Assembly: GCA_048594975.1 (NCBI GenBank)
Contig: JBMDXQ010000145.1
Location: forward strand, 55,284-119,283
Reading direction: 5' to 3'
Origin: Vicinamibacterales bacterium
GTDB taxonomy: Bacteria; Acidobacteriota; Vicinamibacteria; Vicinamibacterales; 2-12-FULL-66-21
Length of the DNA stretch: 64,000 nt
Notes under the pieces: model-generated
Database searches by the model: none
What the model saw: the letters and a program-made list of their open reading frames with translations, nothing else
Told to the model about the DNA's origin: nothing
Program-made: the position numbers and the translations under genes
Shown here: positions 10,160 through 64,000 of the stretch, in pieces
Layout: each line of letters starts with the position of its first letter
How positions within the stretch are numbered: position 1 is the stretch's first letter

Positions 10160-10324
10160 GGGTGGCGGAGTATACCGCGAGCCCGTGACGGAAACGCGGC
10201 AGGGGGCGTCGCTGATCCGCAGTGCCTCACGCGGAGCGACGATTTCTCGGGCGATTTCGGCTGCAGAGACTGGATCGGCTCTTGCTCCGGCAGCACCCTG
10301 TTCCCCGGGCAGTGAGCCGTCCTG

Positions 10325-10855: not shown

Positions 10856-11027
10856 CGCCGTCGTGCCGGCGCCGATCGATCGTCCCGGCTGCCGGTCGTC
10901 GCCCGGTCACGCCGATCCCACCTCGGGCCTTTCCCGCCGGACTCCCGCACGCACAGCACAGGCAGGGAACGCGAACCTGCCCGCTACCGCTCGCCGACGG
11001 CGCGCGGATAGTACAATTGCCGCCGCG

Positions 11028-13265
<2,238 letters not shown>

Positions 13266-47636: not shown

Positions 47637-48241
47637 TGGCCAAGCGCGCGCTGGACGTGGTGCTGTCGCTCTTCGGCCTGGTGGCGTCGTCGCCGCTCTG
47701 GCCGATCATCGGCGCCGCGATCAAGCTCGAAGACGGCGGCCCGATCTTCTACCGCCAGCCACGGGTCGGGCAGTTCGGCCGCGTGTTCGACGCGCTGAAG
47801 TTTCGATCGATGCGGCCGGATGCCGAGGCGGCGAGCGGCGCGATTCAGGCGGGCGAGAACGATCCGCGCGTGACGCGCGTCGGCCGTGTGATGCGCGCGA
47901 CCGCCATGGACGAACTCCCGCAGCTGTGGAACATCCTGCGCGGCGACATGAGCTTCGTCGGCCCGCGGGCGCTCCGGCCGGGCGAGATCGAATCGGCGGC
48001 CGACGGCCGGATCGTGCGCCTCGATGAGATTCCGGGGTACCACCGGCGCATCACCGTCAGGCCCGGGTTGACGGGCGTGGCACAGGTCTACGCCGCGCGG
48101 GACATTCCGCGGCGCCACAAGTTCAGGTACGATCGACTCTATATCGAGACGCGCTCGTGGACGCTCGACGTGCGGTTGATTCTCCTGTCGTTCTGGATTA
48201 GTTTCCGCGGCACATGGGAAGCCCGGGGCCGAAAATACTGA
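47636..48241 (+). CDS. Priming sugar-phosphate transferase (bacterial sugar transferase family, small PGT)
   Basis: Internal start [22 protein letters not shown], with a TGATG overlap. KFRSM...[22 protein letters not shown]...PGLTG motifs. Confidence 0.85.
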
Positions 48242-48248
48242 GGCTGCC

Positions 48249-49409: not shown

Positions 49410-49472
49410 CCGCGCGCCGGCCGCCGCCGGGCGGTTCTGCATCTCATCACCAGTCGTGACACACTGCGCCCC

Positions 49473-50234
49473 GTGACTGATCCGGTTCGCGACGGGCACT
49501 ACGCGCGCAAACAGATCTACTGTCCGACCGCAGTGGTGGCATGGAGCCATCGCCGCCGGTTCGCCCTGGCCACAGAGCTCGCCGGAGAGAGCTCCGGGAG
49601 GCTCCTCGATTTCGGGTGCGGCGACGGCACGTTCGCGGCGCTGGTGCACGATCGGTTTGCCGCAGTGGTCGCCGCCGATCCGGACGCCGCGCAGATGGCC
49701 GACTGCCGGCAGCGATTTGCCGGCCTCGGCAACGTCCAGTTCCTGCTCACCTCGATGCTCGACGCTCCCTCGCATTCCGGGGCATACGACGTGGTGACCT
49801 GCATGGAGGTGCTCGAGCACACGACCGACGCAGAGCGCCGCCGGGTCGTCGATGCGCTGGCGCGGTACGTACGCGCCAAGGGCCGCATCGTGATCAGCGT
49901 CCCGATCGAGATCGGCCCCGCGCTGCTGGCCAAACAGTTCGTCCGGGCGGTCGCGGCACGCCGGGGTCACGGCGACTACCAGCACCGCGAGACCTACACG
50001 CCGCGCGAGATGGCCGTGGCGGTCCTGGGGCGGCGCGCCCTCGCTCGCGCGACCTACACCGCCGATCGCCCTGGTGGTCCTGTGGTCTACTGCGGGCACA
50101 AGGGCTTCGACTGGCGGGTCCTCGAGGCGGAGATTCGCGACCGGCTGGCGGTCGAGCGCCGGGTGTTCTCGCCGGTGCCGTTTGCCGGCCCGCTGCTGAA
50201 CAGCCAGGTCTGGTTCGTGTGCCGACGGAAATGA
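49473..50234 (+). CDS. Class I SAM-dependent methyltransferase
   Basis: 253 aa with a GTG start. LLDFGCGDGTFAAL, VVTCMEVLEH. Confidence 0.75.
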   Translation: MTDPVRDGHYARKQIYCPTAVVAWSHRRRFALATELAGESSGRLLDFGCGDGTFAALVHDRFAAVVAADPDAAQMADCRQRFAGLGNVQFLLTSMLDAPSHSGAYDVVTCMEVLEHTTDAERRRVVDALARYVRAKGRIVISVPIEIGPALLAKQFVRAVAARRGHGDYQHRETYTPREMAVAVLGRRALARATYTADRPGGPVVYCGHKGFDWRVLEAEIRDRLAVERRVFSPVPFAGPLLNSQVWFVCRRK

Positions 50235-51412
50235 GCGGGAGCGCGGGACACGATCGCGTGAGCGAACACGAGATCGCCGCAGTCGTTCGCGGCGGCGCCC
50301 TCGTGCCCTCGAACCCGGCGTCGTTCGTGGCCATGGCGCTCAGGCACCGGATGGCGCCGCTCCTGGTGCATGCCGGGGTGGCGTCGCGGCTGCCGCGGGA
50401 CGAGGGCGCGCGTCTGGTCGAGCATGCCCGCCACGAGCTGGTCGTCGCCGAGCTGCGCGATCGCGAGCTGGCGCGCGTGCTCGCCCTCCTCGACGCAGCC
50501 GGCCTGCGGCCGCTCGTCGTGAAAGGCGCGCACCTGGCGCACACGTGTTACCCGGAGAGCTACCTCAGGCCGCGCGACGACACGGACCTGTTGCTGCCGC
50601 GCGCGGATGCCGCGCGGCTGACAGCGGTCTTGGCGCGCGCGGGCTACCGACGGCTGCCGGACATCACCGCCGATGTCGTGCACGGTCAGGTACTGTTCGA
50701 GCGTGCCGAGAACGTGTCCGTTGTGCTCGACGTGCACTGGCAAATCGCGTCACCCCGGATCGCCGCCGGGCTGCTGTCCTACGACGAACTGATGATCCAC
50801 GCCGTCGACCTGCCGCGCCTCGGCGAAGGTGCGCGAGCGCCGGCCCCCGTGCACGCGCTGGCGCTCGCGTGCATCCACCAGGCGGCGCACCACTCCGGCC
50901 ACGAGCTGCTGCTCTGGATGTACGACATCCACCTGATCGGCTCCCGCTTCACCCCGGCCGACAGCGGCGAGTTCTGCAGCCTGGCGTTCGATCGGAAGAT
51001 GGCTCGACTGTGTGCGCACGCCATCGCGGCGGCAGCCGAGTTCTTCCCCTTCGATTGTTGCGCGGCGCTGCTCGAGCGGCTCGCCGCCGCCGGCAGCCAC
51101 GAGCCCACGGCGTTTCTCGTCGAGCCGCGCACGCCGCTGGCGCAGCTGGCCTCTGACCTCTCGGTCACGCGCACTCCCGCAGCGCGCTTCCGGCTGCTGC
51201 TGGCGCACCTGTTTCCGCCGCCGGCGTATATGCGCCACGCGTACGGCGTGTCGACGACCGCGCTGCTGCCGTTGTTCTACGGCCATCGCATCGCCCGCGG
51301 CGCCGGCCGGTGGTTGCGCGGAGGACTGCGACACACCAACAGGACTGATCAGGAAGTCGTCCCGTCAACCCCCGATCGTCAACGGCCGACTCCCAAGGGA
51401 CCCTCGGGCTGA
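50231..51412 (+). CDS. Uncharacterised nucleotidyltransferase-family protein (NTP_transf_5-like)
   Basis: Internal start MSGSAGHDRV of ORF-track 49541..51412, with an ATGA overlap. LVVKGAHLAHTCYPESYLRPRDDTDLLLPRADAARL..LARAGY...DVHWQI pattern. Confidence 0.65.
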   Translation: MSGSAGHDRVSEHEIAAVVRGGALVPSNPASFVAMALRHRMAPLLVHAGVASRLPRDEGARLVEHARHELVVAELRDRELARVLALLDAAGLRPLVVKGAHLAHTCYPESYLRPRDDTDLLLPRADAARLTAVLARAGYRRLPDITADVVHGQVLFERAENVSVVLDVHWQIASPRIAAGLLSYDELMIHAVDLPRLGEGARAPAPVHALALACIHQAAHHSGHELLLWMYDIHLIGSRFTPADSGEFCSLAFDRKMARLCAHAIAAAAEFFPFDCCAALLERLAAAGSHEPTAFLVEPRTPLAQLASDLSVTRTPAARFRLLLAHLFPPPAYMRHAYGVSTTALLPLFYGHRIARGAGRWLRGGLRHTNRTDQEVVPSTPDRQRPTPKGPSG

Positions 51413-51496
51413 TGTCTTGATCCCGTCCAATGTCCCGGTGTCGGGCAGTCGGGCGCTGGAAGGCAGGAGTCTTCGCCGGCGTTGTTCAGCAGCACG

Positions 51497-52201
51497 TCAG
51501 TCGCGGGGCAGCGGCCGGGCGGCCCGGGGATTTTCGGGAAGCGTCTCGCCGGCGCGCTTCGGAAGGAACCAGTCCACCAGCCGGATCAGCCGGCCGCGTC
51601 GCGTCGGCAGCAACTCCTGCAGCCGCTCGAAGACCATGATCGCGTCCGCCAGCGTGTGCACGACCCCGATGCCGCGCGAGAGCGCGTGCTCCGTGGCGGC
51701 GGTGTCCGGGTCGCGCTGCATCAGCAGCCCCTTGGCTGCCGACGTCGTGACGACATCGACGCAGTTGATCGACAGATCGTCGACAACGATGTCGAGCCGC
51801 AGGCCGTTGGCGATCTCACCGCGCGAGCCCGGCACCGTCAGCACTGCCGGGAGGAAGAACCCGTGCCGCTCGATCCACCATTGCGTCTGGAACTGGACCG
51901 TGTCGCCGGCGCTCGCCGGCCGGTTCGTCAGGAAGAAGACCTCCCACCCGCCCGCCCGCGCCGCGCTGTATAGCCGCGCAATCTGATCGGGCTCGTACGC
52001 CTCCAGGTCCACCCACCAGTTCCTCCGCTGCGCCACCCACTCCCAGACTCGCTTCACGTCCCTCTGCGGGCTCGCGCGCGCACCGGCCGGCTGATCGGCA
52101 TCCCCGATCTCGCGGCCGAGGCACTGCCGCGCGGCGTCGTGAAACGCGGTGCGGAAGTCGGCCAGCACGCCGTCCACGTCGACGCCGATCCTGAGCGCCA
52201 T
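51497..52201 (-). CDS. HAD-superfamily phosphatase, 5'(3')-deoxyribonucleotidase-like
   Basis: 234 aa. Motif I is IGVDVDGVLADF. The start overlaps the stop of the upstream ligase-like gene by 1 nt (TGATG). Confidence 0.6.
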   Translation of the reverse strand: MALRIGVDVDGVLADFRTAFHDAARQCLGREIGDADQPAGARASPQRDVKRVWEWVAQRRNWWVDLEAYEPDQIARLYSAARAGGWEVFFLTNRPASAGDTVQFQTQWWIERHGFFLPAVLTVPGSRGEIANGLRLDIVVDDLSINCVDVVTTSAAKGLLMQRDPDTAATEHALSRGIGVVHTLADAIMVFERLQELLPTRRGRLIRLVDWFLPKRAGETLPENPRAARPLPRD

Positions 52202-53457
52202 CAGGGCGTCGGCGCAGCCGCCTCACGCGACGAGGCGTGGACCAGGATCGCGGCGGCGACCGCGGCGGTGGCGGCATTGGCTGGCGTCGTCAGGCCGGTC
52301 TCGAGCAGGCTCTGGACGGCGACGCCGAACAGGCCGCTCGCCGCGCCCGCTCGGATCCAGAAAATCGGGGTGTCGTCCGAAGCGAGCCGCCGGGACGCGC
52401 CGCGAAGCAGCGCCGCCAGCGCGCCGGCCAGCGGGATTGCCACCAGCAGTCCACCTTCGGAGAGCACCTGCAGGTAGTGGTTGTGCGCCTGGTTGAAGAT
52501 CACGCCCGCCAGGTCACGCTGGTACACGGCCATCGACGTTTGATACGTGCCGAGGCCGGTGCCCGTCAACCAGAAATCCCGGACGACCGCCATCGTATCC
52601 CGCCAGATCGCGGCCCGGCCGGCGACGCTGGCGCCGGCGCTGGCCAGGCGTCCCGTCACGAGCGATGCGTCCATGCCCCACAGGACGATCGCGACCGATG
52701 CCATCGTGCCGCCGGCAATCAGGATCGCCGGGCGCGCCAGCCGGCGCGGCGCGGCGACGAGCCGCCCGCGCGCCAGCAGCGCCGCCACCGCGGCCGCGGC
52801 CACCATCCCGATGACGGCGGACCTCGACAACGAGACGACCGTCGCGGCCATCAGCAGAACGGCCGCGCCAAGCAGCAGCCCGCCGCGCAGATCGAGGGCA
52901 TCCAACAGGCGGCGCTGCCAGGGCGTTCCCGCTCGCGGGCCATGGTGCGCCGTGGCGTGCGCCATCACGTAGCCGGCACACAGCGGTGCGACGAGGATGG
53001 CCCACGTGCCGAAGTGGTTGCGGTTGACGAAGGGGCCGAACGGAGCAGGCCCCTGATCGAGTGGCCGCCACGTCCAGTACATCAGGCCGCGCGCCGTGGC
53101 GTCCTGCGCGACGGCGACGATCGACAGCGTCAGGCCGCTGCAGGCCAGCACGCGCACCACGAGGCGCAAGCCGCCGGCAGCGAAGATGTGCCGCGCGCAG
53201 ACAAACAGCACCAGCGCGCCGCCGAACAGCAGCACGGCCGCGGCCGTCGCGTCGGCATCGATGGTCAGGGGCAGCGACCCGCGCGCGGGCGTCAGGCTCA
53301 GCGCCGTCCCCACGCGTTCGGCGGCGGGGGAAACCGCGGTGCGCAGTAGCGGCGGGAAGGGCACCAGCTGCAGCGCGGCGGTACCGGCGGCGAGTGCCAG
53401 CCAGCGATCGAGTGCCGGCGCCGGACCGCGCCCCAGGACCGCCGGCCGGTACAGCAC
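52201..53457 (-). CDS. O-antigen ligase / Wzy_C-family polytopic membrane protein
   Basis: 418 aa with a GTG start. Many TM segments. FWLTGTGLGTY....Y........AHNHYLQVLSEGGLL is typical of the Wzy_C domain. Confidence 0.75.
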   Translation of the reverse strand: MLYRPAVLGRGPAPALDRWLALAAGTAALQLVPFPPLLRTAVSPAAERVGTALSLTPARGSLPLTIDADATAAAVLLFGGALVLFVCARHIFAAGGLRLVVRVLACSGLTLSIVAVAQDATARGLMYWTWRPLDQGPAPFGPFVNRNHFGTWAILVAPLCAGYVMAHATAHHGPRAGTPWQRRLLDALDLRGGLLLGAAVLLMAATVVSLSRSAVIGMVAAAAVAALLARGRLVAAPRRLARPAILIAGGTMASVAIVLWGMDASLVTGRLASAGASVAGRAAIWRDTMAVVRDFWLTGTGLGTYQTSMAVYQRDLAGVIFNQAHNHYLQVLSEGGLLVAIPLAGALAALLRGASRRLASDDTPIFWIRAGAASGLFGVAVQSLLETGLTTPANAATAAVAAAILVHASSREAAAPTP

Positions 53458-53581
53458 GACGAGCGCGACACAGGCGAACGCCGGGATGGCGAGGTGGCGT
53501 GGGTAGGTTCCGCCGAAGGCGAACGCCGTCCAGGCCAGTAGCGCGGCGACGACGGCCGCCCCCGCCGCTGACCCGGGGCGG

Positions 53582-55849
53582 CTACGCGGAAACCTGGTTC
53601 TGACCGTAGTAGCTCTTGTACTGATACCCGTAGTATCGGGCGTAGTAGTACTTGTTCCGATCCAGGTCGACCCGGTTGAGGACGGCGCCGATCCCGCGCA
53701 GGCGCCCGGCCCGCAACGTCTCGAGGGCCCGCTCCGCGTGCACCCGTCGGGTCATCTCCGATCCGATCACGAACACCATGCCGCCGAGCCTCGGCGCGAG
53801 GACGGCCGCGTCGGTGACCGCCAGCACCGGCGGGGTGTCGATGACCACCCACTCGAACGGGCCGGTGGCGAGGTTGGCGAGCAGCTGGTTCATCCGATCG
53901 GACCCGAGCAGCTCCGACGGGTTCGGCGGCGTCGGCCCGGCCGTAATGACGAACAGGTTCGGCTCGCGGGTGCGCTGCACGACGTCGCGCACGCGCGACT
54001 GGCCGACGAGCAGGTGCGAGAGCCCGCGCACGTTGGGCAGGCCGACCGTCCGGTGAAGCGCCGGCCGCCGCATGTCGGCGTCGATGAGCAGCACGCGCGA
54101 GCCGGCCAGCGCCAGGGCGAGCGAGATGTTGCAGGCGGTCGTCGTTTTGCCTTCGAGCGGCTGGCTGCTCGTCACGCCGATGATACGCGCCTGTTCGCTC
54201 GAGCTGGTGAACACGAGCGACGTCCGCAGCGACCGGAACGCCTCGCCGAAGTCGTGCGGGACCGTCTCGGTGAGCAGCGGCACGCGGCCGCCGCGTACCG
54301 AGGGGAGCAGTCCGAGCAGCGGCAGCCCCAGCCGCCGGGTGACGTCGTCCGGCGTCTTCACCGTGTCGTCCAGGTACTCGAGGCCGAACACGAGCCCCAG
54401 TGCCATTGTGAGTCCTGCCAGAATCGCGGTGATCAGGTCGCGCCGCGTGTCCGGCGTGATCGGCACTGCCGGCGGTTGCGCCCGATCCATCAGCTTCACG
54501 TTGTTGGCCTTGCTGTTGGCCGCGATCTGCACCTTCTGGTATTCGGTGATCAGCGACTTGTGCAGCTCGCGGCTCGCGTCGGCCTGGCGCTTGAGCCCGT
54601 TGTACTCCGCCGCTTTCTTGTCGAGCGCCGCGACGCTGGCGGTCTGCGCCTGGAAGGTGTGCGCGAGCTGTCCCTCCTGGTGCCGCGCGCTCTCGTAGGC
54701 GCTTCGGTAGCGCTCCTTCGCGCGGAACCGCGCCGCGACGAGCTCCTGCTGCGCGTTCTCGAGGCTCACCTTCAGCTTGCGCATGGTTTCGTGGTTCTCG
54801 CCGTAGCGCTGTCCGAGCTGTGACTGCTCGGCGAGCAGGCGGTTCAGCTCGCCGCGCGCCTTGACCACGTCTTCCGCCATGCCGATGAGCGGGATGAGGT
54901 CGGCCGAGTCGTCGCCCGGCTTCGCTCCGGCGACCTGGTTCCACTGGTTCGACGCGCTGCGCAGCGCCGCCTGCGCGCTCAGCCACTGGGTATTGAGCTC
55001 GTTCAGGCGCGTGACCACGACGTTGGTGCGATCCTCGAGCGACTGCGCGTTCCGGTCCTCCCGGTAGCGGGCGAGAGCGTCTTCCGCCTCGCGCGCGCGC
55101 TGGTCGGCGCTCGCCAGCTCCTTCTCGATCCACCGCAGCGTGTTCGTGGTCGCTTCCAGCCGGTTCTCCAGGTTCTGTGCGACGTACTCCTCGGCAATGG
55201 TGTTGGCGGCAAGCGCCGCGAACTGCGGATCGTGATGCCGGTAGACGATGTTGACGAGCAGCGACGCCTCGACCGGCACGATCGTGACGCGGCTCATGAG
55301 CGCAGTGATCACCGTCTCTTCCCGCGACGCCGGCGCCTGCGCCACAGCCGGGTCCGGCGTCCCGCCCGGACGGGAGAACAGGCCGCGTACCCACACGGTC
55401 AGGCCGCTGCGCGCCTGCCGCAGCAGCGACAGCGGGTCGCGCCCCACCGGGCCGCTGCCGCTGAACAGCGGGTGATCGACCAGCTTCAGCCGCCGGACGA
55501 CGCGCCGCCCGACCTCGCGGCTGCGCATCACCTGGTACTGCGTCGTGTAGTACGCCTCGATCGCCTGGTAGTTCAGCGGGTCGGTCACGCCGATCGCGCC
55601 GATGGACGTCGACCGCTCGTCGCTGATCTCCACCTGGGCCGACGTCTGGTAGATCGGGATCGTCGAGTACGACTGCACCATCATGATCCCGAACACGAGC
55701 AGGAATGCGGTCGCGGCGATGCGGCGGTGCTTGAAAACGGCGTTGAGGCGATCCAGCAGGTGAACGGGCTGGCCGGAGGCCGGCAGCGGCACCCCGGGCG
55801 GCGTTTCCGTGGCACCCACCGCCGCTCGCATCTCCTGGGTATCGAACAT
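53582..55849 (-). CDS. wzc: Polysaccharide co-polymerase / tyrosine autokinase (Wzc/GumC, PCP-2a)
   Basis: 755 aa. Wzz-type N-terminal TM, long coiled-coil periplasmic region and a second TM. Walker A is SSQPLEGKTTTA, A' is LLIDADMRRP, B is VVIDTPPVLAVTDA. C-terminal Tyr cluster YYYARYYGYQYKSYYG. Confidence 0.9.
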   Translation of the reverse strand: MFDTQEMRAAVGATETPPGVPLPASGQPVHLLDRLNAVFKHRRIAATAFLLVFGIMMVQSYSTIPIYQTSAQVEISDERSTSIGAIGVTDPLNYQAIEAYYTTQYQVMRSREVGRRVVRRLKLVDHPLFSGSGPVGRDPLSLLRQARSGLTVWVRGLFSRPGGTPDPAVAQAPASREETVITALMSRVTIVPVEASLLVNIVYRHHDPQFAALAANTIAEEYVAQNLENRLEATTNTLRWIEKELASADQRAREAEDALARYREDRNAQSLEDRTNVVVTRLNELNTQWLSAQAALRSASNQWNQVAGAKPGDDSADLIPLIGMAEDVVKARGELNRLLAEQSQLGQRYGENHETMRKLKVSLENAQQELVAARFRAKERYRSAYESARHQEGQLAHTFQAQTASVAALDKKAAEYNGLKRQADASRELHKSLITEYQKVQIAANSKANNVKLMDRAQPPAVPITPDTRRDLITAILAGLTMALGLVFGLEYLDDTVKTPDDVTRRLGLPLLGLLPSVRGGRVPLLTETVPHDFGEAFRSLRTSLVFTSSSEQARIIGVTSSQPLEGKTTTACNISLALALAGSRVLLIDADMRRPALHRTVGLPNVRGLSHLLVGQSRVRDVVQRTREPNLFVITAGPTPPNPSELLGSDRMNQLLANLATGPFEWVVIDTPPVLAVTDAAVLAPRLGGMVFVIGSEMTRRVHAERALETLRAGRLRGIGAVLNRVDLDRNKYYYARYYGYQYKSYYGQNQVSA

Positions 55850-55876
55850 GTGGTCCTGTCTGCGGGCGGAACGCCG

Positions 55877-56422
55877 CTACCGCTGTGCGCTCACGGGACG
55901 GACCGCCTCCGGCGCAATCGCGGTGATACCGGCCAGGGCCGCCGCGGAAACCGCGGCCGCGCCGGCGCTGCTGAAGAACTCGGCGTACCACGGCACCTTC
56001 ACGCGGAGCCTGACGAACGTGGCGACCGTCTCGCCGGGCGCGATCGTGAACGGCTGGCCGAGCGCCAGGACCCCACCGCTCTCCGAGACCAGCTCGACGA
56101 GATACGATCCGCTCTCGACGCTCGCGAACGTGAACCGGCCGTCCTCGCCGCCGACCGTGGTCGCCTCGACGCGCCCGGTCTGCAGGTTCCGCAGCCGAAG
56201 CCGCGCGTTCGGGATGGGAGAATTGTCGGCGTACCACGCGGCGCCGAGAATCGACGTCCCACGCCGCGCCGCGGCGCTCGTGGCGTCCGCCTTCGCCGGC
56301 GGTGCCGCGTCGGCATGGCGCCGCGCCGGCGGGTCCGTCCGCGGAGCGGCGGCCGCGATGAGCGTGCCGAGCAGCAGGCAGACCATCGGCCAGCCGACCG
56401 ACCGGGATGCGCGAGTCCTCAT
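55877..56422 (-). CDS. Carboxypeptidase-regulatory-like domain protein (secreted)
   Basis: Internal start MRTRASRSVGWPMVCLLLGTLIAAAAP of ORF-track 55877..56572. NARLRLRNLQTGRVEATTVGGEDGRFTFASVESGSYLVEL. First gene of the wzc operon. Confidence 0.65.
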   Translation of the reverse strand: MRTRASRSVGWPMVCLLLGTLIAAAAPRTDPPARRHADAAPPAKADATSAAARRGTSILGAAWYADNSPIPNARLRLRNLQTGRVEATTVGGEDGRFTFASVESGSYLVELVSESGGVLALGQPFTIAPGETVATFVRLRVKVPWYAEFFSSAGAAAVSAAALAGITAIAPEAVRPVSAQR

Positions 56423-56440
56423 GGAGATACCCGTCTTATC

Positions 56441-56459
56441 GGTTCCCCGGGCGGGAACC
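56441..56459 (-). promoter_or_regulatory. Hairpin in the 5' leader of the wzc operon
   Basis: GGTTCCC-CGGGC-GGGAACC (7-bp stem), 19-37 nt upstream of start 56422. Confidence 0.35.
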
Positions 56460-56910
56460 CTACGACCAGCGCAATTTTGAAGCCGTGTGTGTCCCGGCAT
56501 CGTACCGGCTCGACGCCATGGGACAACCGGAGTGGCCAGCGGAAGCCTCGGCAGCCCCGGGCTTCTCTGCAAGGCGGTAAACCCGTAGAGCCAAAGTACT
56601 TAATGACCATCGCCGCACGGGCGCCCGGGACGCCAGTCGAACCATGTACCGCGCGGTCGACGCACGGCGTCTTCACAGGCGTTCCGGGCGCGGCCCGGAG
56701 GCCCGCGACGCTCATCCACCCGCGGTTCAGAACCGTGATCGATATTGCAGTGCTGTTATCAGCCGGCCCAACGCTGCCACGAGGCCGGACGGCGCTGCGC
56801 GGCGGCCGCGGCAATCCGGTGCGAATCTCGCCAGCCACGCCTGTCTGCAGCGGGCTCCAGCCGAGGCGCGCCGGCCGCACCATTTTGTGGCCGGGAGTTA
56901 CAATTCGCGC

Positions 56911-57189
56911 ATGGCCGTCACGCTGGAGTCCCGTGTGTCAATTTCCGACGACGCGGTTTTCCGCGAGCTCGAGGGGGAGGCGGTGATCGTTCATCTCGAC
57001 TCCGGGACGTACTACGGCCTCGATCCCGTCGGGACCCGACTGTGGCAGCTGATCGACACGCACGGGCGACTGCAGCGTGCATTCGACGCGGCGCTCGAGG
57101 AGTTCGATGTCGAACCGGAACGGCTGCAACACGATCTGCTCCAGCTCGTGTCCGAGCTCGCGCGCCACAGGCTCGTCGAGGTACGGTGA
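56911..57189 (+). CDS. PqqD-family RiPP recognition element (lasso peptide B1)
   Basis: Internal start MAVTLESRVS of ORF-track 56644..57189. AVFRELEGEAVIVHLDSGTYYGLDPVGTRLWQLID is a typical PqqD fold sequence. Confidence 0.85.
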   Translation: MAVTLESRVSISDDAVFRELEGEAVIVHLDSGTYYGLDPVGTRLWQLIDTHGRLQRAFDAALEEFDVEPERLQHDLLQLVSELARHRLVEVR

Positions 57190-57596
57190 TGGGGCGCGCG
57201 AACGCCGGGCCGCCGTTCGCGCTGCGTCTCGAAGCGTACGTGCTGGCCGTGCTCGTCCGCATCATCCTCCGCACCACGTCGCTCAAGCGCGCGGGTGCGC
57301 TGCTCGCGCGCGTGCCACGGCGCCGCGCGGGCGGCGCCGACACCGCCGCAACCTGTCTCGGCGCAGCTTCCGAGGCCGCGGCCCGAGTCGCCCACCCGAC
57401 CTGCCTCTTCGAGTCGCTGGTTGCCTTCGCGCTGCTCGCGCGGCGCGGCTACGACGTCGTGCTCCACGTCGGCGCCAGGCGCGAAGCCGGGCTGGAGGCG
57501 CACGCCTGGGTGACGATCGCGGGTCGCCCCTGCCAGCCGGAAGCGCTCCTCGGCTACACCGAGTTCTGGCGCGTCGTGGCCGCGTCCGGACGGTGA
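57189..57596 (+). CDS. Lasso peptide biosynthesis B2 protein (transglutaminase-like Cys protease)
   Basis: Internal start MGRANAGPP, with a TGATG overlap. CLFESLVAFALLARRGYDVVLHVGAR......HAWVTIAG matches the catalytic Cys/His signature of B2 leader peptidases. Confidence 0.85.
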   Translation: MGRANAGPPFALRLEAYVLAVLVRIILRTTSLKRAGALLARVPRRRAGGADTAATCLGAASEAAARVAHPTCLFESLVAFALLARRGYDVVLHVGARREAGLEAHAWVTIAGRPCQPEALLGYTEFWRVVAASGR

Positions 57597-57600
57597 GCGC

Positions 57601-59469
57601 ATGAGCGGCGTTGCCGCCGTCTTGCGCGCGTCCGCCGACGCACCGGCGGAAGCGGACCTCGGGCCCATGCTCGCCGCCTCGGCGCACCGAGCGCCTCACG
57701 GGACCGCCGCATGGTCGGGTGAGGGCGTCGCGCTCGGATACCTGTCGTTCGAGACGATTCCCGGCAGCGAACCGCAACCGCTCGTCGACCCGTTGCGCGG
57801 CCTGGCGATCGTGTTCGATGGCCGCCTCGACAATCGCGAGGAGCTGGCGACGGCGCTGGACGTGGATGCCGGGACGTCGGATTCGCGCCTGGTACTCGAG
57901 GCCTTTGCCGCCTGGGGACCCGGGGCCGCGCCGCGTGCGCTCGGCGACTTCGCGTGGATCGCATGGGACGCGGTCCGCCGCCGGCTGGTGGCGGCGCGCG
58001 ATCATCTTGGCAGCCGTCCCCTGCATTACTGCGCGCGACCCGACGTGGTCCTCTGCGCGACCGATGTGGCCCAGTTGCTGGCGCATGCCTCGACGCCCCG
58101 GGAGGCCGACCCGGATGTCGTCGCCGATTACCTCGCGCTCGACGTGCAGAACGCCGCCGCGACGCTGCTGCGCGGCGTCAACCGCGTGCCGCCCGGCCAC
58201 GTGCTGGTCGTCGAGCGGGGCCGCGCGTCTCTCCGCCGGTACTGGCGCGCCGAGCCGCGCGAGACGCTGCGCCTGCGCGGCGATCGCGAGTATGCGCAGC
58301 GATGCCGCGAGCTGCTGGCGCGCAGCGTCGCCGCGCGGATGCGGAGCCGCCGTCCGGTGGCGGCGATGCTGAGCGGCGGCGTCGATTCGTCGTCGATCGT
58401 GGCGACGGCTGCGCGGCTGCAGGCGGGGCCGGGCGCGGGCATCGCGCCGTACTCGATGGTGTTTCCCGGCCGCTCGGAGGCGGACGAGCGCGCGTTCATC
58501 GAAGAGGTCGCGGCGCACCACGGCCTGACGGCCGTGCTCGTGGAGCCCGCGCGCGTGACCGCGCGCGCCATGCGCGAGCACGCCGCGCGAACGCTCGACT
58601 GCCCAGCCTTTGCGTCCGACTTCGGCGCCCGCAGCCTGTACGACGCGATTCGCGGCCGCGGGCACGACGTCGTGCTCACCGGCGCCGGCGGCGACTACCT
58701 GTTCGGCGGCAGCGTGTTCCAGTACGCCGACCACCTCCGCGAGTTACGCGTCGCAGCCGCCGTGCGCCAGTTCCTCGCCGACCGGCACACCCAGTCGTCC
58801 GGTTGGTCCCGCCTGGCGCTGTTCCAGGCCGGCGTCTGGCCGCTCCTGCCGGGAGGGCTCAAACGCGTCCTGCGTCCCGCGGCGCGCCGCGTTGCCGGGA
58901 TACGCGACCGCCCGCCGTGGTTGCGGCTTCCGCGGGCGGCGCGACCGGCGACGCCGGAGCGGCAGCGCGGCGGGAGCTTCGCGACCGAGGAAGTGACGCG
59001 CGAGCTGGGGAGCGGACTGCACAGTCTCTTCCTCGAGGCCGGGGAGCGCGAGCTCGCCCGGGTGCCGCTCGAAGCCCGAGACCCGCTGCTCGACGTGCGC
59101 CTGGTGGAGTTCGCGCTGTCGATTCCAGAGACCCAGCGCCGCCGGGGGCCGGTGCACAAGTTGGTGCTGCGCAACGCCCTCGGGCCGGATCTCCCGCCGC
59201 GCGTCGCCACGCGGCGGACCAAGGCCGCGTTCGGCTACGTGATCATGGAGGTGCTCGCGGCGCTCGGCGGCGCCAGCTTCCTCACCTCGATGCGCATCGC
59301 CGAGGCGGGCTGGGTCGATGGCGCCGCGCTCGCGACGGCATACGAGCGCGCGCGGCGGCGGTTCTCCGCCGGCGACCTGCGGTACGGGAACGAGTTGCCC
59401 TGGCTCTGGATGGCAGTCGCGATCGAGTTGTGGTTCGACGCGGTGTTCGAGCGCGCGTCGCCGGGGTGA
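57601..59469 (+). CDS. Asparagine-synthetase-like lasso cyclase (C protein)
   Basis: 622 aa. The N-terminus is MSGV (Ser in place of the glutaminase Cys). PP-loop is VAAMLSGGVDSSSIV. Flanked by B2 and the precursor. Confidence 0.85.
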   Translation: MSGVAAVLRASADAPAEADLGPMLAASAHRAPHGTAAWSGEGVALGYLSFETIPGSEPQPLVDPLRGLAIVFDGRLDNREELATALDVDAGTSDSRLVLEAFAAWGPGAAPRALGDFAWIAWDAVRRRLVAARDHLGSRPLHYCARPDVVLCATDVAQLLAHASTPREADPDVVADYLALDVQNAAATLLRGVNRVPPGHVLVVERGRASLRRYWRAEPRETLRLRGDREYAQRCRELLARSVAARMRSRRPVAAMLSGGVDSSSIVATAARLQAGPGAGIAPYSMVFPGRSEADERAFIEEVAAHHGLTAVLVEPARVTARAMREHAARTLDCPAFASDFGARSLYDAIRGRGHDVVLTGAGGDYLFGGSVFQYADHLRELRVAAAVRQFLADRHTQSSGWSRLALFQAGVWPLLPGGLKRVLRPAARRVAGIRDRPPWLRLPRAARPATPERQRGGSFATEEVTRELGSGLHSLFLEAGERELARVPLEARDPLLDVRLVEFALSIPETQRRRGPVHKLVLRNALGPDLPPRVATRRTKAAFGYVIMEVLAALGGASFLTSMRIAEAGWVDGAALATAYERARRRFSAGDLRYGNELPWLWMAVAIELWFDAVFERASPG

Positions 59470-59555
59470 CGCCGGTCCGGCTGCGGGCTATGATGTCAGG
59501 AGCGAGGCGCGCCGCCTCCATGTCCCGGCGGCCGCGGAGGGCTGGCGGGGGCTGC

Positions 59556-59735
59556 ATGACCGAAGAAAACGCCCGGAACGAAAGGTCCGCGCCGCAGCAG
59601 GTCCGGCCGCCGCGGCGCCCCTACACGTCCCCGCGGCTCATCGAGTACGGCTCGGTCGCCAAGCTGACCCGCGGTCAGCGCTCGGTCAACTCGGATTTCC
59701 CGAAGGCCGGTTTCCAGCGATCGCATTGCCTCTGA
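59556..59735 (+). CDS. Lasso peptide precursor (A), 59 aa, not listed as its own ORF
   Basis: MTEENARNERSAPQQVRPPRRPYTSPRLIEYGSVAKLTR/GQRSVNSDFPKAGFQRSHCL. Exact Y-x2-P-x-L-x3-G-x5-T-x-G leader pattern, with Thr at -2, Gly1 and Asp8. GGAGG lies at 59537-59541. Confidence 0.8.
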   Translation: MTEENARNERSAPQQVRPPRRPYTSPRLIEYGSVAKLTRGQRSVNSDFPKAGFQRSHCL

Positions 59736-59745
59736 GCGTTCCCGT

Positions 59746-60888
59746 GTGTCGCTGATCGTCGATGAGCACCGCGAGTACCTGTCCGACGCGACGCGGCTGG
59801 CCGTGTTCGCGCGCGCGCTCGCCCACCACGTCGCCCCGCAATCGATCGTCGCCGACCTGGGGACGGGCACCGGGATCCTCGCGGTCCTCGCCTGCCGCGC
59901 CGGCGCCGCCCGCGTGTACGCCATCGAGTCGACCGGCATGGTGGAAATCGCCCGCGCCGTCGCGACCGCCAATGGCTTCGCCGGCCGCATCCACGTGATC
60001 AAGGCGGACGTCGCCGAGGTGGCCCTCCCCGAGCGGGTCGATGTCATCGTCGGCGACTTCGTCGGCCGGTTCGGGTTCGAGTCGGGGATCTTCGAGTCGT
60101 ATCCTGCGGCGGCGGCCGCGCTGTTGAAGCCGGGCGGAGTCGTGATCCCGTCAGAGATCACGCTGTCGATCTTTCCGGTCGAATCAACCGGTCTGGACGA
60201 GCGCGTGCGGTTCTGGCAGGCCCCGCGACAGGGCGTCGTCGTGGCGCCGGCGGAGGACTGGGCGCTCAACACCGGCTATCCTGCCGCGATCGGCGCGGTG
60301 GCGCTGCTCGGAGACGCCGTGGAGGTCGCGCGCGTGCCGACCACCTCCGTGACCGCGCACAGCCTCGGCGCTGACGTGCGCCTGGTCATCCGGCGCGCCG
60401 GCGTCCTCCACGGGCTGGGCGGTGCCTTTGCCGCGCAGCTGGCGCCGGGCGTCACGCTGACGAACGCGCCCACCGCGGTCGAGCGCATCGCGCGGCGCAA
60501 CGTCTTCTTTCCCGTTCGAACGCCGGTGGAGGTGACCGAGGGAGACATGGTCCAGGTTCGGATGCGGATCCTCCCGACCGAGTCGATCGTGAGCTGGACC
60601 GTCGAGGTGCGTGCCGCCGATGGTGCCGTGCGCATGCGCAGCGCCCACTCGACGCTGCATGGCCTGTTGATCGCGCGCGAGGACCTGGCGCGCGCCCGGC
60701 CGGATTTCGTGCCCGCGCTGACGCGACGCGGGAACGCGCGACTGACGGTGCTCGCTTTGTGCGACGGACGGCGGACGCTGAGCGAGGTCGAGCGGGGCGT
60801 ATACGACCTGCACCAGGAGCTGTTCGAGACGCCGGCCGAGGCGGCGGCCTTCGTCGCGGAAGTGACCTCCAGGTACGCGCGGACATGA
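59746..60888 (+). CDS. PRMT-fold SAM methyltransferase fused to a C-terminal PqqD/RRE-like domain
   Basis: 380 aa with a GTG start. Motif I VADLGTGTGILAVLACRAGAARVYAIE. Double-acid loop VDVIVGDFVGRFGFESGIFES. LKPGGVVIPS plus a beta-barrel-like middle section (VLHGLGGAFAAQL...TNAP...NVFFPV). C-terminus ARLTVLALCDGRRTLSEVERGVYDL...AAAFVAEV is PqqD-like. Confidence 0.7.
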   Translation: MSLIVDEHREYLSDATRLAVFARALAHHVAPQSIVADLGTGTGILAVLACRAGAARVYAIESTGMVEIARAVATANGFAGRIHVIKADVAEVALPERVDVIVGDFVGRFGFESGIFESYPAAAAALLKPGGVVIPSEITLSIFPVESTGLDERVRFWQAPRQGVVVAPAEDWALNTGYPAAIGAVALLGDAVEVARVPTTSVTAHSLGADVRLVIRRAGVLHGLGGAFAAQLAPGVTLTNAPTAVERIARRNVFFPVRTPVEVTEGDMVQVRMRILPTESIVSWTVEVRAADGAVRMRSAHSTLHGLLIAREDLARARPDFVPALTRRGNARLTVLALCDGRRTLSEVERGVYDLHQELFETPAEAAAFVAEVTSRYART

Positions 60889-61841
60889 AATACTGCGCCT
60901 TCGGCTGCACACTCGAGAGCGACGAGCCGCTTCCGGAGCTGCCGCCGGCGCCCGGTTCGCCGGCGCCGCGGTGGCGCGTGTTCTGGCACGATTCGATCCG
61001 CTGGCCGGCCGCGCTGCGATGGCGCACGCTGTGGGCCGCGGCCCGCGCGGACGGCGGCGTCGCGGTGGCACGCGCCGCGGGCACGTGCTTCCTGCGGTTC
61101 GACGGCCTCGCGACGGCGGCGATCGGCCGCGGGCGCATCGCCCTCGCCCCCGTTCACTCGGCGGATCCCGAGGCCGTCCGCCACGCCCTGCTCGATCAGA
61201 TCTTGCCGCTGGCTCTCGCCGCCGCGGGGGAAACGGTCCTGCACGCAAGCGCCGTGGCGGCCGGTGGCGCCGCGCTGCTGTTCGCGGGCGGCGCGGGGTC
61301 CGGGAAATCGACGCTGGCCGCTGCGCTGTCGGCTGGTGGCGCGGAAGTGCTCGCCGACGACGGCGTGCTGCTCGAGCGCCGCGGCGAGGCGGTCTGGGCC
61401 GTCCCGTCCTATCGGGGCCTGCGGCTGTGGCCGGACGCTGCGGCCGGTACGGTTGTGCGCGGTTTCTCGATGGCGGCGCGGCCGCGTCGCGCCGCCGCGA
61501 TCGAGAAGTATCGTCTCGTGCCGCGCGACGCCGTGATCTGCGCACCGGCGTTACCGGTCGCCGCGGTGTACACGCTGCATCCCGGGTCGGGCGCGCCGGC
61601 GTTCTCCAGGCTCACGCGCCGGGACACCGCGCTGGAGCTGGTCAGACACGCGTACACGCCGGAGCCCGCTGGCCGTGCCGGCGTCGTCGCCCACCTCGAC
61701 CGCGCCGTATCCTGGTCCGAGGGACTGGACGTGTGGCGGCTCGACGCGCCGCGCGACCTCACGAGCCTGCCGGGGCTCGCCGCCGCCGTCCTGGCACACG
61801 CCGGCGCGCGCGGCGCTTCTGCTAGATTACAGACCCGATGA
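60885..61841 (+). CDS. HPr-kinase-related P-loop protein (putative RiPP kinase)
   Basis: Internal start MKYCAFGCTLES of ORF-track 60759..61841, with an ATGA overlap. LHASAVAAGGAALLFAGGAGSGKSTLAAAL is typical of the HprK C-terminal kinase domain. Confidence 0.7.
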   Translation: MKYCAFGCTLESDEPLPELPPAPGSPAPRWRVFWHDSIRWPAALRWRTLWAAARADGGVAVARAAGTCFLRFDGLATAAIGRGRIALAPVHSADPEAVRHALLDQILPLALAAAGETVLHASAVAAGGAALLFAGGAGSGKSTLAAALSAGGAEVLADDGVLLERRGEAVWAVPSYRGLRLWPDAAAGTVVRGFSMAARPRRAAAIEKYRLVPRDAVICAPALPVAAVYTLHPGSGAPAFSRLTRRDTALELVRHAYTPEPAGRAGVVAHLDRAVSWSEGLDVWRLDAPRDLTSLPGLAAAVLAHAGARGASARLQTR

Positions 61842-62680
61842 CACGACAGGTCGACGTGCTGACTTCGGCGACGCTCAAACACCTCCGCGACCGTTGGTGG
61901 GATGACGACTTCACCGAGTTCATGCGGGACACCGTCGCGCCCCGCCCGGGCCAACGGATCCTCGACGTCGGCTGCGGCACCGGCACCGCGGAGGTGCGCC
62001 TGTCGCGGCTGCGCATCTCGCAGATCAACATCGTCGCCGTCGACCTGGTAGTGGAGCGCGTGGCGCAGGCGCGGACGGCGGCGCAGGCGCACAACATCCG
62101 CTCCAGCTTTGCGGCGGCGGACGCCTGCGTGCTGCCCTTCGGCGACGACACGTTTGACTCGGCATTCTGCGTCGCCGTGCTCCAGCACATCCGCGACGTC
62201 CCGCGCGCCGTCCGGGAGCTCGCCCGGGTCACGCGGCCGGGAGGCCGCGTCGTCGCCGTCGAGCCGGACAACTCGGGCCGCTACTTCTACAGCTCGTCGG
62301 ACGCGGGGCGCCGCGCCTATGACGCCGCCGGCCAGTTCTTCGCCACGCTCGCGGAGATCCGCGGCGACGCGACCGACCGCGCCGTCGGGCCGAAGCTGCC
62401 CGCGCTGTTCGCGCAGAGCGGCATCCATCCCCTGCGCGTCCACCTGTTTCCGGTCTCCCGCGCGCAGCTGGGCGCGCCCTCCGATGCCGTCTGGGCGGAG
62501 CGGCGGGCCGCAGTGCGGGACGCAGCCGAGCATGCGCCCGACGACGCGATCGGCCGGCTCGGACGCGATTATCTGAAGCTCCTGGATCGCTACGCCCAGG
62601 AGGCGCACGCCGCCGGTCCGGCGTTCGTCGAGATCCAGAACACGCTGCTCTTCGCTACCGTCGGGCAGCGGCCGGAATGA
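61838..62680 (+). CDS. Class I SAM-dependent methyltransferase
   Basis: 280 aa with an ATGA overlap. ILDVGCGTGTAEV, FDSAFCVAVLQHI, RPGGRVVAVE. Confidence 0.8.
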   Translation: MTRQVDVLTSATLKHLRDRWWDDDFTEFMRDTVAPRPGQRILDVGCGTGTAEVRLSRLRISQINIVAVDLVVERVAQARTAAQAHNIRSSFAAADACVLPFGDDTFDSAFCVAVLQHIRDVPRAVRELARVTRPGGRVVAVEPDNSGRYFYSSSDAGRRAYDAAGQFFATLAEIRGDATDRAVGPKLPALFAQSGIHPLRVHLFPVSRAQLGAPSDAVWAERRAAVRDAAEHAPDDAIGRLGRDYLKLLDRYAQEAHAAGPAFVEIQNTLLFATVGQRPE

Positions 62681-63483
62681 TGGCCCACCGCGGCCCGGGT
62701 GGCGCGGCGCGTCGCGCGCCTCGCGCCGGCGCCGCCGGCTGGGACGAGTACGCGCCGTTCTACGACTGGGAGAATGCGCAGACGGTGGCCCGCCGCGACG
62801 TCGCGTTCTGGCAGCGGCTCGCCGCGGCGCAGGACGGCACGGTCCTCGAGCTCGGGTGCGGTACGGGGCGGATCTCCGTGCCGGTCGCGCGGACGGGCGC
62901 GCGGCTGGTCGGCATCGATCGGTCGGCGCCGATGCTGCGGCGCGCCGCGCAGCGGCTGCGCCGCGTGCCGGGCGCGTGCGCACGGCTCGTGCGCGGCGAC
63001 ATCCGGGCGCTGCCCTTCCGGCAGCGGGTCGGCTTCTCGCTGGTGATGGCGCCGTACGGGATGCTGCAGTCGCTGACCAGCGAGCGCGACCTGCGCGCGA
63101 CGCTGCATTCGATTCACCGGGTACTGCGTCGCGGCGGCCTGCTGGCGATCGACCTGGTGCCCGACCTGCCCCGCTGGCAGGAGTACTCACGGCGCACCAC
63201 CCTCTCCGGGCGCCGCGGGCGCGGCCACCTGACGCTGGTCGAATCGGTACGCCAGGACCGTCGGCGCCGGCTGACGATCTTCGACCAGGAATACGTGGAG
63301 CGCCGCGGTCGCAGCCGCCGGTCGCACCGCTTCTCCCTCGCGTTCCGGACGCTGTCGGTGCGGGAGGTGGCGGCGCGCCTCGAAGCTGCCGGGTTCCAGG
63401 TCCAGGCAGTCCTCGGCGACTATCAGGGCGGCCCGTGGGATGAACGCGCCGACGTGTGGCTCATCCTCGCGGTGCGGCACTAG
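62677..63483 (+). CDS. Class I SAM-dependent methyltransferase
   Basis: 268 aa with an ATGA overlap. VLELGCGTGRISVPVA..GARLVGIDRS, LRRGGLLAIDL. Confidence 0.8.
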   Translation: MMAHRGPGGAARRAPRAGAAGWDEYAPFYDWENAQTVARRDVAFWQRLAAAQDGTVLELGCGTGRISVPVARTGARLVGIDRSAPMLRRAAQRLRRVPGACARLVRGDIRALPFRQRVGFSLVMAPYGMLQSLTSERDLRATLHSIHRVLRRGGLLAIDLVPDLPRWQEYSRRTTLSGRRGRGHLTLVESVRQDRRRRLTIFDQEYVERRGRSRRSHRFSLAFRTLSVREVAARLEAAGFQVQAVLGDYQGGPWDERADVWLILAVRH

Positions 63484-63752: not shown

Positions 63753-64000
63753 ATGTCCGGCCATTCCAAATGGCACACGATCAAGCACAAGAAGGGTGCG
63801 GCTGACGCCAGGCGCGGCAAGATCTTCACCCGCATCATCAAGGAGTTGACCGTCGCGGCGCGCGCCGGTGGCGGCGACCCCGACGCCAACCCCCGCCTGC
63901 GCACCGTCATCGCCGACGCGAAGTCGGTGAACATGCCGGCCGACAACATCAAGCGCGCGATCCAGCGGGGCACGGGCGAGCTGCCCGGCGTCGCCTACGA
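63753..64000 (+). CDS. yebC: YebC/PmpR-family transcriptional regulator (3' end off-window)
   Basis: [37 protein letters not shown]... is the highly conserved YebC N-terminus. GAGGGA lies 7 nt upstream of the ATG. Open to the window end. Confidence 0.9.

Follow-up and report, generated by a model that had tools for sequence, protein, structure and literature searches.

A methyltransferase of protein arginine methyltransferase fold, encoded between precursor and kinase genes of a lasso peptide cluster, probably methylates something other than arginine

Lasso peptides serve as a major scaffold in antibiotic research and in peptide engineering, and only about a dozen reactions that tailor them have been described. 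The described systems closest to the one considered here include StspM and LasF, the C-terminal carboxyl O-methyltransferases of lassomycin-type lasso peptides (PMC8498205, PMC9266682), and the PIMT-type methyltransferases TceM and LihM, associated with the aspartimide in cellulonodin-2 and lihuanodin (PMC9266682, PMC13352647). HprK-like lasso kinases have been described as PadeK for paeninodin, PsmK for pseudomycoidin, and BsfK (PMC8498205, PMC10368454), and in pseudomycoidin-type clusters an enzyme of the NTP_transf_5 family glycosylates the phosphate (PMC8498205). None of these kinase clusters (paeninodin, pseudomycoidin, BsfK) has a gene resembling a protein arginine N-methyltransferase (PRMT) (PMC8498205, PMC9266682, PMC10368454, PMC13352647). 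Here we analyze a 64,000-nucleotide stretch of DNA from a Vicinamibacterales bacterium (contig JBMDXQ010000145.1, positions 55,284 to 119,283; hereafter "the window"), in which a predicted lasso peptide cluster encodes, between its precursor and an HprK-like kinase, a PRMT-like methyltransferase that we call MT1. A literature search returned, within the library covered, no paper that connects PRMT-like enzymes with lasso peptides or with ribosomally made peptides with post-translational modifications (RiPPs) in general, and the family is not mentioned in the lasso reviews up to mid-2026 that we consulted.

The features at the center of this work are the following, in window coordinates.

59556-59735, + strand: precursor A, 59 aa (NCBIfam lasso_leader_L3, 24.7 bits against a cutoff of 19)
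59746-60888, + strand: PRMT-like methyltransferase MT1, 380 aa, GTG start, beginning 10 nt past the precursor stop
59746-60651, + strand: MT1 residues 1-302, PRMT-type catalytic core with a Rossmann domain binding S-adenosylmethionine (SAM; to about residue 140), a dimerisation-arm region and a beta-barrel
60652-60888, + strand: MT1 residues 303-380, family-specific C-terminal helical domain
60885-61841, + strand: HprK-like peptide kinase (NCBIfam HprK_rel_A, E 1.6e-9; Pfam Hpr_kinase_C, E 3.9e-4; both below cutoff)

A first-pass annotation, made from the letters of the sequence, had described MT1 as a possible arginine-methylating enzyme with a PRMT layout, followed by a beta-barrel-like segment and a PqqD-like RiPP recognition element (RRE). 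Its coordinates and the short gap to the precursor gene are correct, the precursor ending with a TGA at 59733-59735, and every motif it quoted is found in MT1: motif I, IVADLGTGTGILAV, at residues 34-47, the post-I motif VYAIE at 57-61, GDFVGRFGFES at 103-113 and LKPGGVVIP at 127-135. The PRMT layout is equally well borne out. The best phmmer matches in the PDB were all PRMTs (PRMT4.2 with 1.8e-25, PRMT6 with about 2e-24, CARM1 with 1e-20), and a profile of 52 homologues matched PRMT6 with an E-value of 1.7e-44 over positions 7-278, which covers the Rossmann domain as well as the beta-barrel. AlphaFold 2 (AF2) yielded a model of MT1 with a mean predicted local distance difference test score (pLDDT) of 93.5 and a predicted template modelling (pTM) score of 0.83, and the top 50 Foldseek matches in the PDB were all PRMT6, 2, 4, 1 or 3, with E-values around 1e-27, target-normalised TM-scores of 0.73-0.85 and alignments of about 315-325 columns; with some 320 columns aligned, the barrel is included here too. 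The curated Pfam thresholds were passed by PrmA and three generic methyltransferase models, and PRMT_C and PRMT5_C stayed below threshold.

The SAM-binding elements are also those of PRMTs. IVADLGTGTG, VYAIE and Arg17 align to PRMT6 and PRMT4.2 and are invariant or nearly so in the 52 homologues, across which the SAM-binding residues Arg17, Asp37, Gly41, Gly43 and Glu/Asp61 are conserved, so that MT1 is not expected to be a pseudo-enzyme. With type I PRMTs (PRMT6, PRMT1, PRMT2, PRMT3, CARM1/PRMT4), it shares Rossmann motif I and post-I, a HEEML-like helix (here DEHREYL), the SAM-carboxylate-binding Arg17, the dimerisation arm and the beta-barrel. By sequence comparison and predicted structure, MT1 is a PRMT in fold and ancestry, and it would have descended from the type I enzymes with its Rossmann domain, dimerisation arm and barrel retained. 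The N-terminal YFxxY helix, which closes over SAM in PRMTs, has no counterpart. MT1 begins at the helix equivalent to HEEML, its residue 6-8 aligning to chain residue ~25-60 of the PRMT constructs, and its start, MSLIVDEHR, is conserved in the homologues.

The double-E loop of PRMTs contains two invariant glutamates, nine positions apart, that bind the guanidinium group. When MT1 is aligned to PRMT4.2 and PRMT6, the first of these glutamates corresponds to Asp104, as the first-pass annotation had supposed, and this aspartate is invariant in the family. The column of the second glutamate holds Ser113 in MT1 and an alanine in most homologues. One residue before it lies Glu112, replaced in some members by Asp, Asn, Gly or Leu, and the acidic pair Asp104/Glu112 is one residue closer together than the PRMT pair. 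The canonical THW loop, which the same annotation had failed to find, is indeed absent: the loop aligns to Arg247-Ile-Ala249-Arg250, with varying residues in the His column and a near-invariant arginine in that of Trp. The key changed positions are thus Asp104, Glu112/Ser113 and Arg247-Ile-Ala249-Arg250-Arg251.

We tabulated these columns for about 150 related genes from genomes and metagenomes, including stand-alone PRMT-like controls. The stand-alone bacterial and archaeal proteins (about 300-330 aa; for example in loci L133, L145, L036 and L047 of the collection introduced below) are homologous to MT1 over residues ~5-300 with 24-36% identity; unlike MT1, they keep E104, E113 and H249-W250 and lack the C-terminal domain. 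The window clade displays D104, E/D112 and R250-R251, and in a distant lasso clade (26-35% identity) D104 is joined by Y250-G251 and by a hydrophobic residue at 112. The residues at positions 112 and 250 go together by clade (E/D with R; F/L/H/Y with Y; E113 with W), and this concerted change suggests that residues 112 and 250 touch each other and fill the former guanidinium pocket. The catalytic signature is altered specifically in the lasso-linked clades. In contrast to type I PRMTs, MT1 has no YFxxY helix, an aspartate for the first glutamate, a lost or shifted second glutamate and x-Arg for the His-Trp of the THW loop; it is bacterial and embedded in a RiPP locus, carries an extra helical domain of 78 residues and is partnered with peptides that mostly lack arginine. 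Judged by its double-E, THW and YFxxY regions, MT1 would not be a type I PRMT in the catalytic sense.

Relatives of MT1 were gathered from one genome scan, one metagenome scan and four exact-protein look-ups, giving 165 loci (L001-L165), of which those with at least 3 kb on both sides were counted as well flanked. Of the 32 well-flanked loci whose methyltransferase has both the C-terminal domain and Asp104, 30 also contain lasso C/B1 genes and an HprK-like gene. Among 26 well-flanked copies of canonical E104 enzymes that lack the domain, 24 have neither lasso nor kinase genes nearby. Methyltransferase and kinase genes are adjacent in 58 of 69 loci despite lineage-dependent gene orders, and the linkage to lasso genes has been kept through rearrangement across phyla. 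In the window, the MT1 stop codon (60886-60888) overlaps the ATG of the kinase gene as ATGA, a 4-nt overlap of reading frames by which MT1 is predicted to be translationally coupled to this next tailoring gene. In more than 40 loci, a homologous precursor is encoded at the corresponding place, and synteny between the window and the closest relatives (85-65% identity) is complete and extends to the Wzz-like and CarboxypepD_reg genes on the flank. With more than 150 representatives at 50% identity (full-length match, E<1e-90) in Acidobacteriota, Nitrospirota, Rokubacteria, Myxococcota, Cyanobacteria, Chloroflexi-related bacteria and others, this is, by all sequence indications, a large and uncharacterised family of kinase-coupled, PRMT-derived lasso tailoring enzymes.

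The precursor encoded just upstream of MT1 has a leader, ...PRRPYTSPRLIEYGSVAKLTR, that ends in Thr(-2)-Arg(-1), and a core, GQRSVNSDFPKAGFQRSHCL, that ends in Cys-Leu and is predicted to form a ring between Gly1 and Asp8. Arg3 and Arg16, to which the first-pass annotation had drawn attention, are both present in this core. MT1 could accordingly be read as a genuine PRMT that transfers methyl groups to the guanidino nitrogens of Arg3, of Arg16 or of both, while its C-terminal domain, as an RRE, is docked on the leader. The confirmed fold would fit such a role, as would the acidic pair Asp104 and Glu112 that remains in the window clade, Phe105, which in the window sub-lineage is closer to the Trp of PRMTs, the recurrence of Arg3 in L161, L163, L165 and L081, and the richness in arginine of two cores in L162. 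However, the spacing of the double-E loop is shortened and its canonical second glutamate is lost, Glu112 itself being Asn or Gly in some members, and the change of the THW His-Trp to x-Arg would set a cation beside the guanidinium.

The composition of the cognate cores points away from arginine as well. We recovered the cores encoded beside the methyltransferases with a hidden Markov model of the leader, 40 from the window clade (clade II) and 19 from the distant clade (clade III). As 24 of the 40 clade II cores contain no arginine, this residue cannot serve as a conserved acceptor; core statistics and the table of catalytic residues together rule it out in that capacity. It is also absent from 12 of the 19 clade III cores, whereas Ser or Thr occurs within the last four residues of 17 of the 19. 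Even among the seven closest cores (the window, L161, two in L162, L163, L165 and L081), Arg3 is found in five, being Phe or Trp in the two L162 cores, and position 16 varies between Arg, Lys and His. With the homology of the C-terminal domain to RREs also falling short of significance (see below), we regard guanidino methylation by MT1 as unlikely, and the arginine-methylating function proposed by the first-pass annotation is not upheld. MT1 probably methylates something other than arginine.

Methylation of an Asp or Glu side chain in the manner of PIMT enzymes was considered and ruled out, given that an acidic residue besides the ring acceptor occurs in only 2 of the 40 clade II cores. TceM and LihM resemble MT1 in being methyltransferases recruited into lasso clusters from a protein-modifying family, but they have the PCMT fold and need a conserved ring Asp6, and MT1 has no PCMT match in Pfam.

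The fold, the changes at catalytic positions, the linkage of the genes and the make-up of the cognate cores lead us to infer with good confidence that MT1 is an active SAM-dependent tailoring methyltransferase, that it has the precursor or lasso peptide as substrate and the kinase as partner, and that it uses an acceptor other than arginine. It would belong to a class II, split-B lasso pathway, its acceptor pocket re-modelled and a C-terminal three-helix domain added, and its substrate would be the product of the precursor gene just upstream, with the HprK-like kinase as its partner. Every core has a carboxylate at its C-terminus and at least one Ser or Thr (or a phosphate after kinase action). 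As the site of methylation we prefer the Cys19-Leu20 end, because no other feature of the cores is as conserved (32 of the 40 in clade II end in -Cys-Leu), because the loop arginines could hold a carboxylate, and because Asp104 could deprotonate a thiol. In one version, the thiol of Cys19 would be methylated with the invariant Asp104 as general base; in the other, the alpha-carboxylate of Leu20 would be methylated while held by Arg108, Arg250 and Arg251. Methylation at the C-terminus of lassomycin, by an unrelated enzyme, offers a precedent for modification at this end (PMC8498205, PMC9266682). The whole model, a non-arginine tailoring methyltransferase with Cys19-Leu20 as its preferred site, is put forward tentatively, at somewhat less than an even chance.

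StspM and LasF are SAM-dependent tailoring enzymes of lasso pathways too, and they act on the precursor C-terminus, a leading candidate chemistry for MT1. They differ in that they belong to an unrelated class I methyltransferase subfamily (modelled on a mitomycin 7-O-methyltransferase, with catalytic His/Glu), have neither a beta-barrel nor a kinase partner and come from Actinobacteria. In view of its PRMT fold, seen in sequence and model, membership of MT1 in the StspM/MmcR-type O-methyltransferases is very unlikely.

Several points weigh against the Cys-Leu end as acceptor. Eight of the 40 clade II clusters have no cysteine in the core yet keep an intact methyltransferase, which rules out cysteine as a universal acceptor. 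An invariant aspartate beside the methyl donor is awkward for an anionic carboxylate. The distant clade, with Tyr250-Gly251, is without the arginines invoked for holding the carboxylate, and its cores end in K-T/S-x motifs, not in CL. Among the closest cores, the frequency of Arg3 and the presence of a basic residue at positions 15-17 make Arg or Lys methylation possible within this sub-lineage. Moreover, the geometry of the pocket is inferred from alignments alone. We also scanned the columns of the methyltransferase for association with the -CL end; the best uncorrected p values, 0.0015-0.0022 for positions 144, 205 and 108 in 732 tests, are not significant after correction. Arg108, which lies in the catalytic loop, is present in 15 of 22 -CL clusters versus 0 of 7 non-CL clusters (uncorrected p of 0.002 over the 732 tests), an association that is confounded by lineage and only a hint.

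The basic residue in the tail deserves separate consideration. It follows a conserved Gly-Phe, and is Arg16 in the window, Lys in close relatives and part of a K-T/S motif in the distant clade, and MT1 might thus be an N-methyltransferase of lysine, or of lysine and arginine alike, at this position. An acidic residue is kept at 104, and at 112 in the window clade; GF(Q/K)(R/K) is conserved in the closest relatives; Lys or Arg occurs in 29 of 40 clade II and 18 of 19 clade III cores, and 13 of the 19 clade III cores have a [KR][ST] motif in their last six residues. However, 11 of the 40 clade II cores contain no Lys, Arg or His at all, although the methyltransferases beside them are intact, and we know of no lysine methyltransferase with a PRMT fold. 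We consider this reading rather improbable.

The partnership with the kinase raises another possibility, namely that MT1 methylates the phosphate ester on a Ser or Thr, or requires a phosphopeptide, akin to the capping by hexose in pseudomycoidin. The kinase sequence shows a His...GxGKS...DD motif, with the His, the GSGKS P-loop and the DD intact, and its relation to MT1 is close: the two genes co-occur strictly, are adjacent and overlap by four nucleotides in the window. All 40 clade II cores contain a Ser or Thr, and 38 of them have one among ring positions 3-6. The window core has no C-terminal Ser, so its kinase site more likely is a ring Ser or Thr, as Ser3 is for BsfK. Phosphorylation of ring Ser3 by BsfK (PMC10368454) and further derivatisation of the phosphate (PMC8498205) are precedents, and the new pocket arginines 108, 250 and 251 could bind a phosphate. 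On the other hand, a phosphate should be repelled by the invariant Asp104 if there were no metal to bridge them, and the distant lasso clade lacks these arginines. NTP_transf_5 genes sit inside the methyltransferase and kinase clusters of about 30 related loci, and this co-occurrence rules out the methyltransferase as a simple substitute for the nucleotidyltransferase that caps the phosphate. Methyl-phosphoserine is, to our knowledge, without precedent in RiPPs. Taken together, phosphate methylation has a low probability. The clusters resemble the described HprK-like kinase clusters in that the neighboring kinase belongs to the same family and many related loci also carry NTP_transf_5; they differ in that the cores here end in Cys-Leu, not in Ser.

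One could also suppose that the substrate is not the peptide but a cellular protein, for example the target of the peptide, methylated for self-immunity, or a protein of the pathway. The ancestors of MT1 were protein methyltransferases, its C-terminal domain is also found on canonical PRMT-like enzymes in non-RiPP contexts (L029 and L119, see below), and the window cluster has no ATP-binding cassette (ABC) exporter or immunity gene. Against this stand the position of the MT1 gene immediately behind the precursor gene and its coupling to a peptide kinase, as well as the survival of the lasso linkage across phyla and the restriction of the altered catalytic signature to lasso-linked clades. A non-peptide substrate is therefore highly improbable, and a methylated peptide remains the reading that we favor.

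The C-terminal domain of MT1 is conserved in all full-length homologues. Residues 303-380 are predicted to form a short helix and a three-helix bundle (helices 327-338, 345-355 and 363-375); in the AF2 model, the three helices have a pLDDT of about 95 and there is no beta-sheet belonging to the domain. The winged helix-turn-helix of PqqD consists of a three-stranded sheet followed by three helices; in MT1, the final hairpin of the barrel might act as the wing. The first-pass annotation had taken these last 80 or so residues for a PqqD/RRE domain. The stretch LALCDGRRTLSEVE does resemble alpha1-alpha2 of PqqD, and the three helices and the pattern L-x-DG-x-R-T/S-L-x-E-I/V in the alpha1-alpha2 register are features in common with PqqD/RRE domains (PF05402; TfuB1, 6jx3; PqqD, 3g2b). 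We aligned narrow and broad query alignments with hhalign to a 27-member alignment of the clusters' own B1 proteins; the probability was 2%, with a P of 0.022, in the expected alpha1-alpha2 register. The Pfam PqqD model PF05402 gave no match to the whole protein at E<=0.1 or to 27 isolated C-terminal domains at E<=10, a profile search of the PDB with the domain gave none either, and HMMER with the B1 profile gave a weak and non-significant score. With the domain-only AF2 model, Foldseek found no match with E<0.79; the PqqD structures 3g2b and 5sxy appeared at E 1.4-1.6 and the lasso B1 structure 6jx3 at E 7.3.

The structural comparison confirmed the PRMT fold of the core and yielded no significant RRE match (best E 0.79) for the domain behind it; across all tests, the hints of PqqD were weak and in the expected register. 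The domain differs from PqqD/RRE proteins in lacking a significant match in sequence or structure, in lacking the three-stranded sheet and in occurring in non-RiPP contexts too. L029 and L119 encode PRMT-like enzymes with acidic double-E residues and a homologous C-terminal domain in loci without lasso genes; occurrence of the domain is therefore not tied to RiPP clusters, and the domain is older than the association with lasso peptides. An RRE is still a reasonable guess, and the domain may dock MT1 on the leader or on B1. In both L029 (9974-11699) and L119 (4508-6186), the double-E enzyme has a T-S-W loop and is followed by a gene for a SHOCT-domain protein, the two genes forming a conserved pair. 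L104 (1303-2936) has a PRMT-like enzyme with acidic double-E residues, HW and the C-terminal domain, followed by an S24-like peptidase and an NTP_transf_5 gene; lasso genes were not detectable on the 7.3 kb available.

PRMT-like enzymes of a different make are found in two further lasso and HprK clusters, in L069 (Myxococcota; 9671-10885) and L050 (metagenome-assembled genome of Cytophagales; 9680-10885). These proteins of 401-404 aa keep the first glutamate and an acidic residue at the position of the second (EE in L069, G-E in L050), and have x-S-W for THW. They lack the C-terminal domain and have instead an N-terminal extension of about 105 residues, which looks PqqD-like by eye only; Pfam found nothing in it and the hhalign P of 0.01 is not significant. 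The L069 precursor (12260-12436, - strand) has a core, AARVRGSPDGGPFGFKPRGG, with a classic RGG motif at its end. In L105, a PRMT-like enzyme with acidic double-E residues and the C-terminal domain lies beside a lasso B1 gene; precursors were not found for the canonical double-E enzymes beside lasso B1 in L105 and L106. By their active-site residues, the L069 and L050 enzymes are better candidates than MT1 for true lasso arginine methylation.

These observations can be combined in a broader scenario, in which PRMTs were recruited at least two times into lasso pathways, the MT1 clade having exchanged arginine for another acceptor (a thiol, hydroxyl, carboxylate or phosphate, located at the Cys-Leu end or on the kinase product), and the double-E sisters (L069, L050, L105) methylating arginine. 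We find this possible but doubtful. If true, the MT1 clade would provide the first PRMT-fold enzyme acting on a non-guanidino substrate and a new lasso modification, and the sisters in L069, L050 and L105 would N-methylate arginine, as no enzyme is known to do in a RiPP of this class. Identification of the acceptor would enlarge the RiPP toolbox by a new modification and exemplify how nature rebuilds a PRMT pocket for another substrate.

The remaining features of the locus are listed below.

56911-57189, + strand: B1, stand-alone PqqD-type RRE, 92 aa (Pfam PqqD, E 2.9e-16; NCBIfam lasso_PqqD_Bac, E 5.9e-13, below cutoff)
57189-57596, + strand: B2 leader peptidase, transglutaminase-like (Pfam Transglut_core3, E 2.6e-15; NCBIfam lasso_biosyn_B2, 56 bits against a cutoff of 33)
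57601-59469, + strand: lasso cyclase C, asparagine-synthetase-like (Pfam Asn_synthase, E 2.8e-47, and GATase_7; NCBIfam lasso cyclase, E 4.5e-95, below cutoff)
59466-59494, + strand: putative sigma-70-like promoter, GTGACG-17-TATGAT, 9 of 12 positions (1 site found against 0.2 expected)
61838-62680, + strand: MT2, class I SAM methyltransferase, Methyltransf_11/UbiE-like (Pfam Methyltransf_11, E 1.4e-21)
62677-63483, + strand: MT3, class I SAM methyltransferase (Pfam Methyltransf_25, E 3.6e-20; NCBIfam daptide_MTase, E 1.5e-24, below cutoff)
63753-64000 (from its start to the window end): YebC/TACO1-family gene, downstream cluster border
53582-55849, - strand: Wzz/GNVR-CbiA tyrosine-kinase-like gene
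55877-56572, - strand: CarboxypepD_reg protein

With a precursor whose leader is of the YxxPxL...T(-2) type and collinear B1, B2 and C genes on the + strand (56911-59735), the locus matches, as far as sequence can tell, a split-B lasso peptide cluster. The start of B2 overlaps the stop of B1. The sigma-70-like match lies between the cyclase stop and the precursor start and could drive a separate transcript of the precursor and tailoring genes. The 64-kb window gave no matches when scanned for Rfam families and tRNAs. MT2 and MT3 are confined to the closest relatives (L003, L009 and L163-L165), and the window peptide may bear up to three different methylations, by MT1, MT2 and MT3. In L163 and L164, the MT2 and MT3 genes are followed by a 2-oxoglutarate-Fe(II) oxygenase gene that the window does not have. 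In L165, ruvC-ruvA-ruvB come after the YebC/TACO1 gene, and this arrangement defines where the lasso cluster ends downstream.

On the other side, the lasso cluster adjoins an exopolysaccharide-type locus (43682-56572) with three GT4 glycosyltransferases, an oxidoreductase dependent on flavin adenine dinucleotide (FAD) and a Wzy_C O-antigen-ligase-like gene on the - strand. The Wzz/GNVR-CbiA and CarboxypepD_reg genes are syntenic with the lasso cluster in L161-L163. The window itself has an NTP_transf_5 gene, annotated as an uncharacterised nucleotidyltransferase (49541-51412, with the domain at about 50312-51007), 6 kb upstream of the lasso cluster and separated from it by polysaccharide genes.

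The tails of the cores are often rich in methionine, as in GMSAMFRPTAMGMGMCL and GGPMMMACL (window core, 59676-59732, and cores among L001-L165). One cysteine together with several methionine thioethers might, as a speculation, serve to bind a soft metal such as Cu(I) or act as a shared recognition tag, and the Cys-Leu end and the Met-rich tails point to a shared function of these peptides from uncultured soil and water bacteria. A 76%-identical relative, L162, has two tandem precursor genes (5599-6011) whose cores are without the Cys-Leu end and have long Arg-rich tails (...GFEHKDRTRASARVRPPREAA and ...GFQHKERSRAPAQFRVP).

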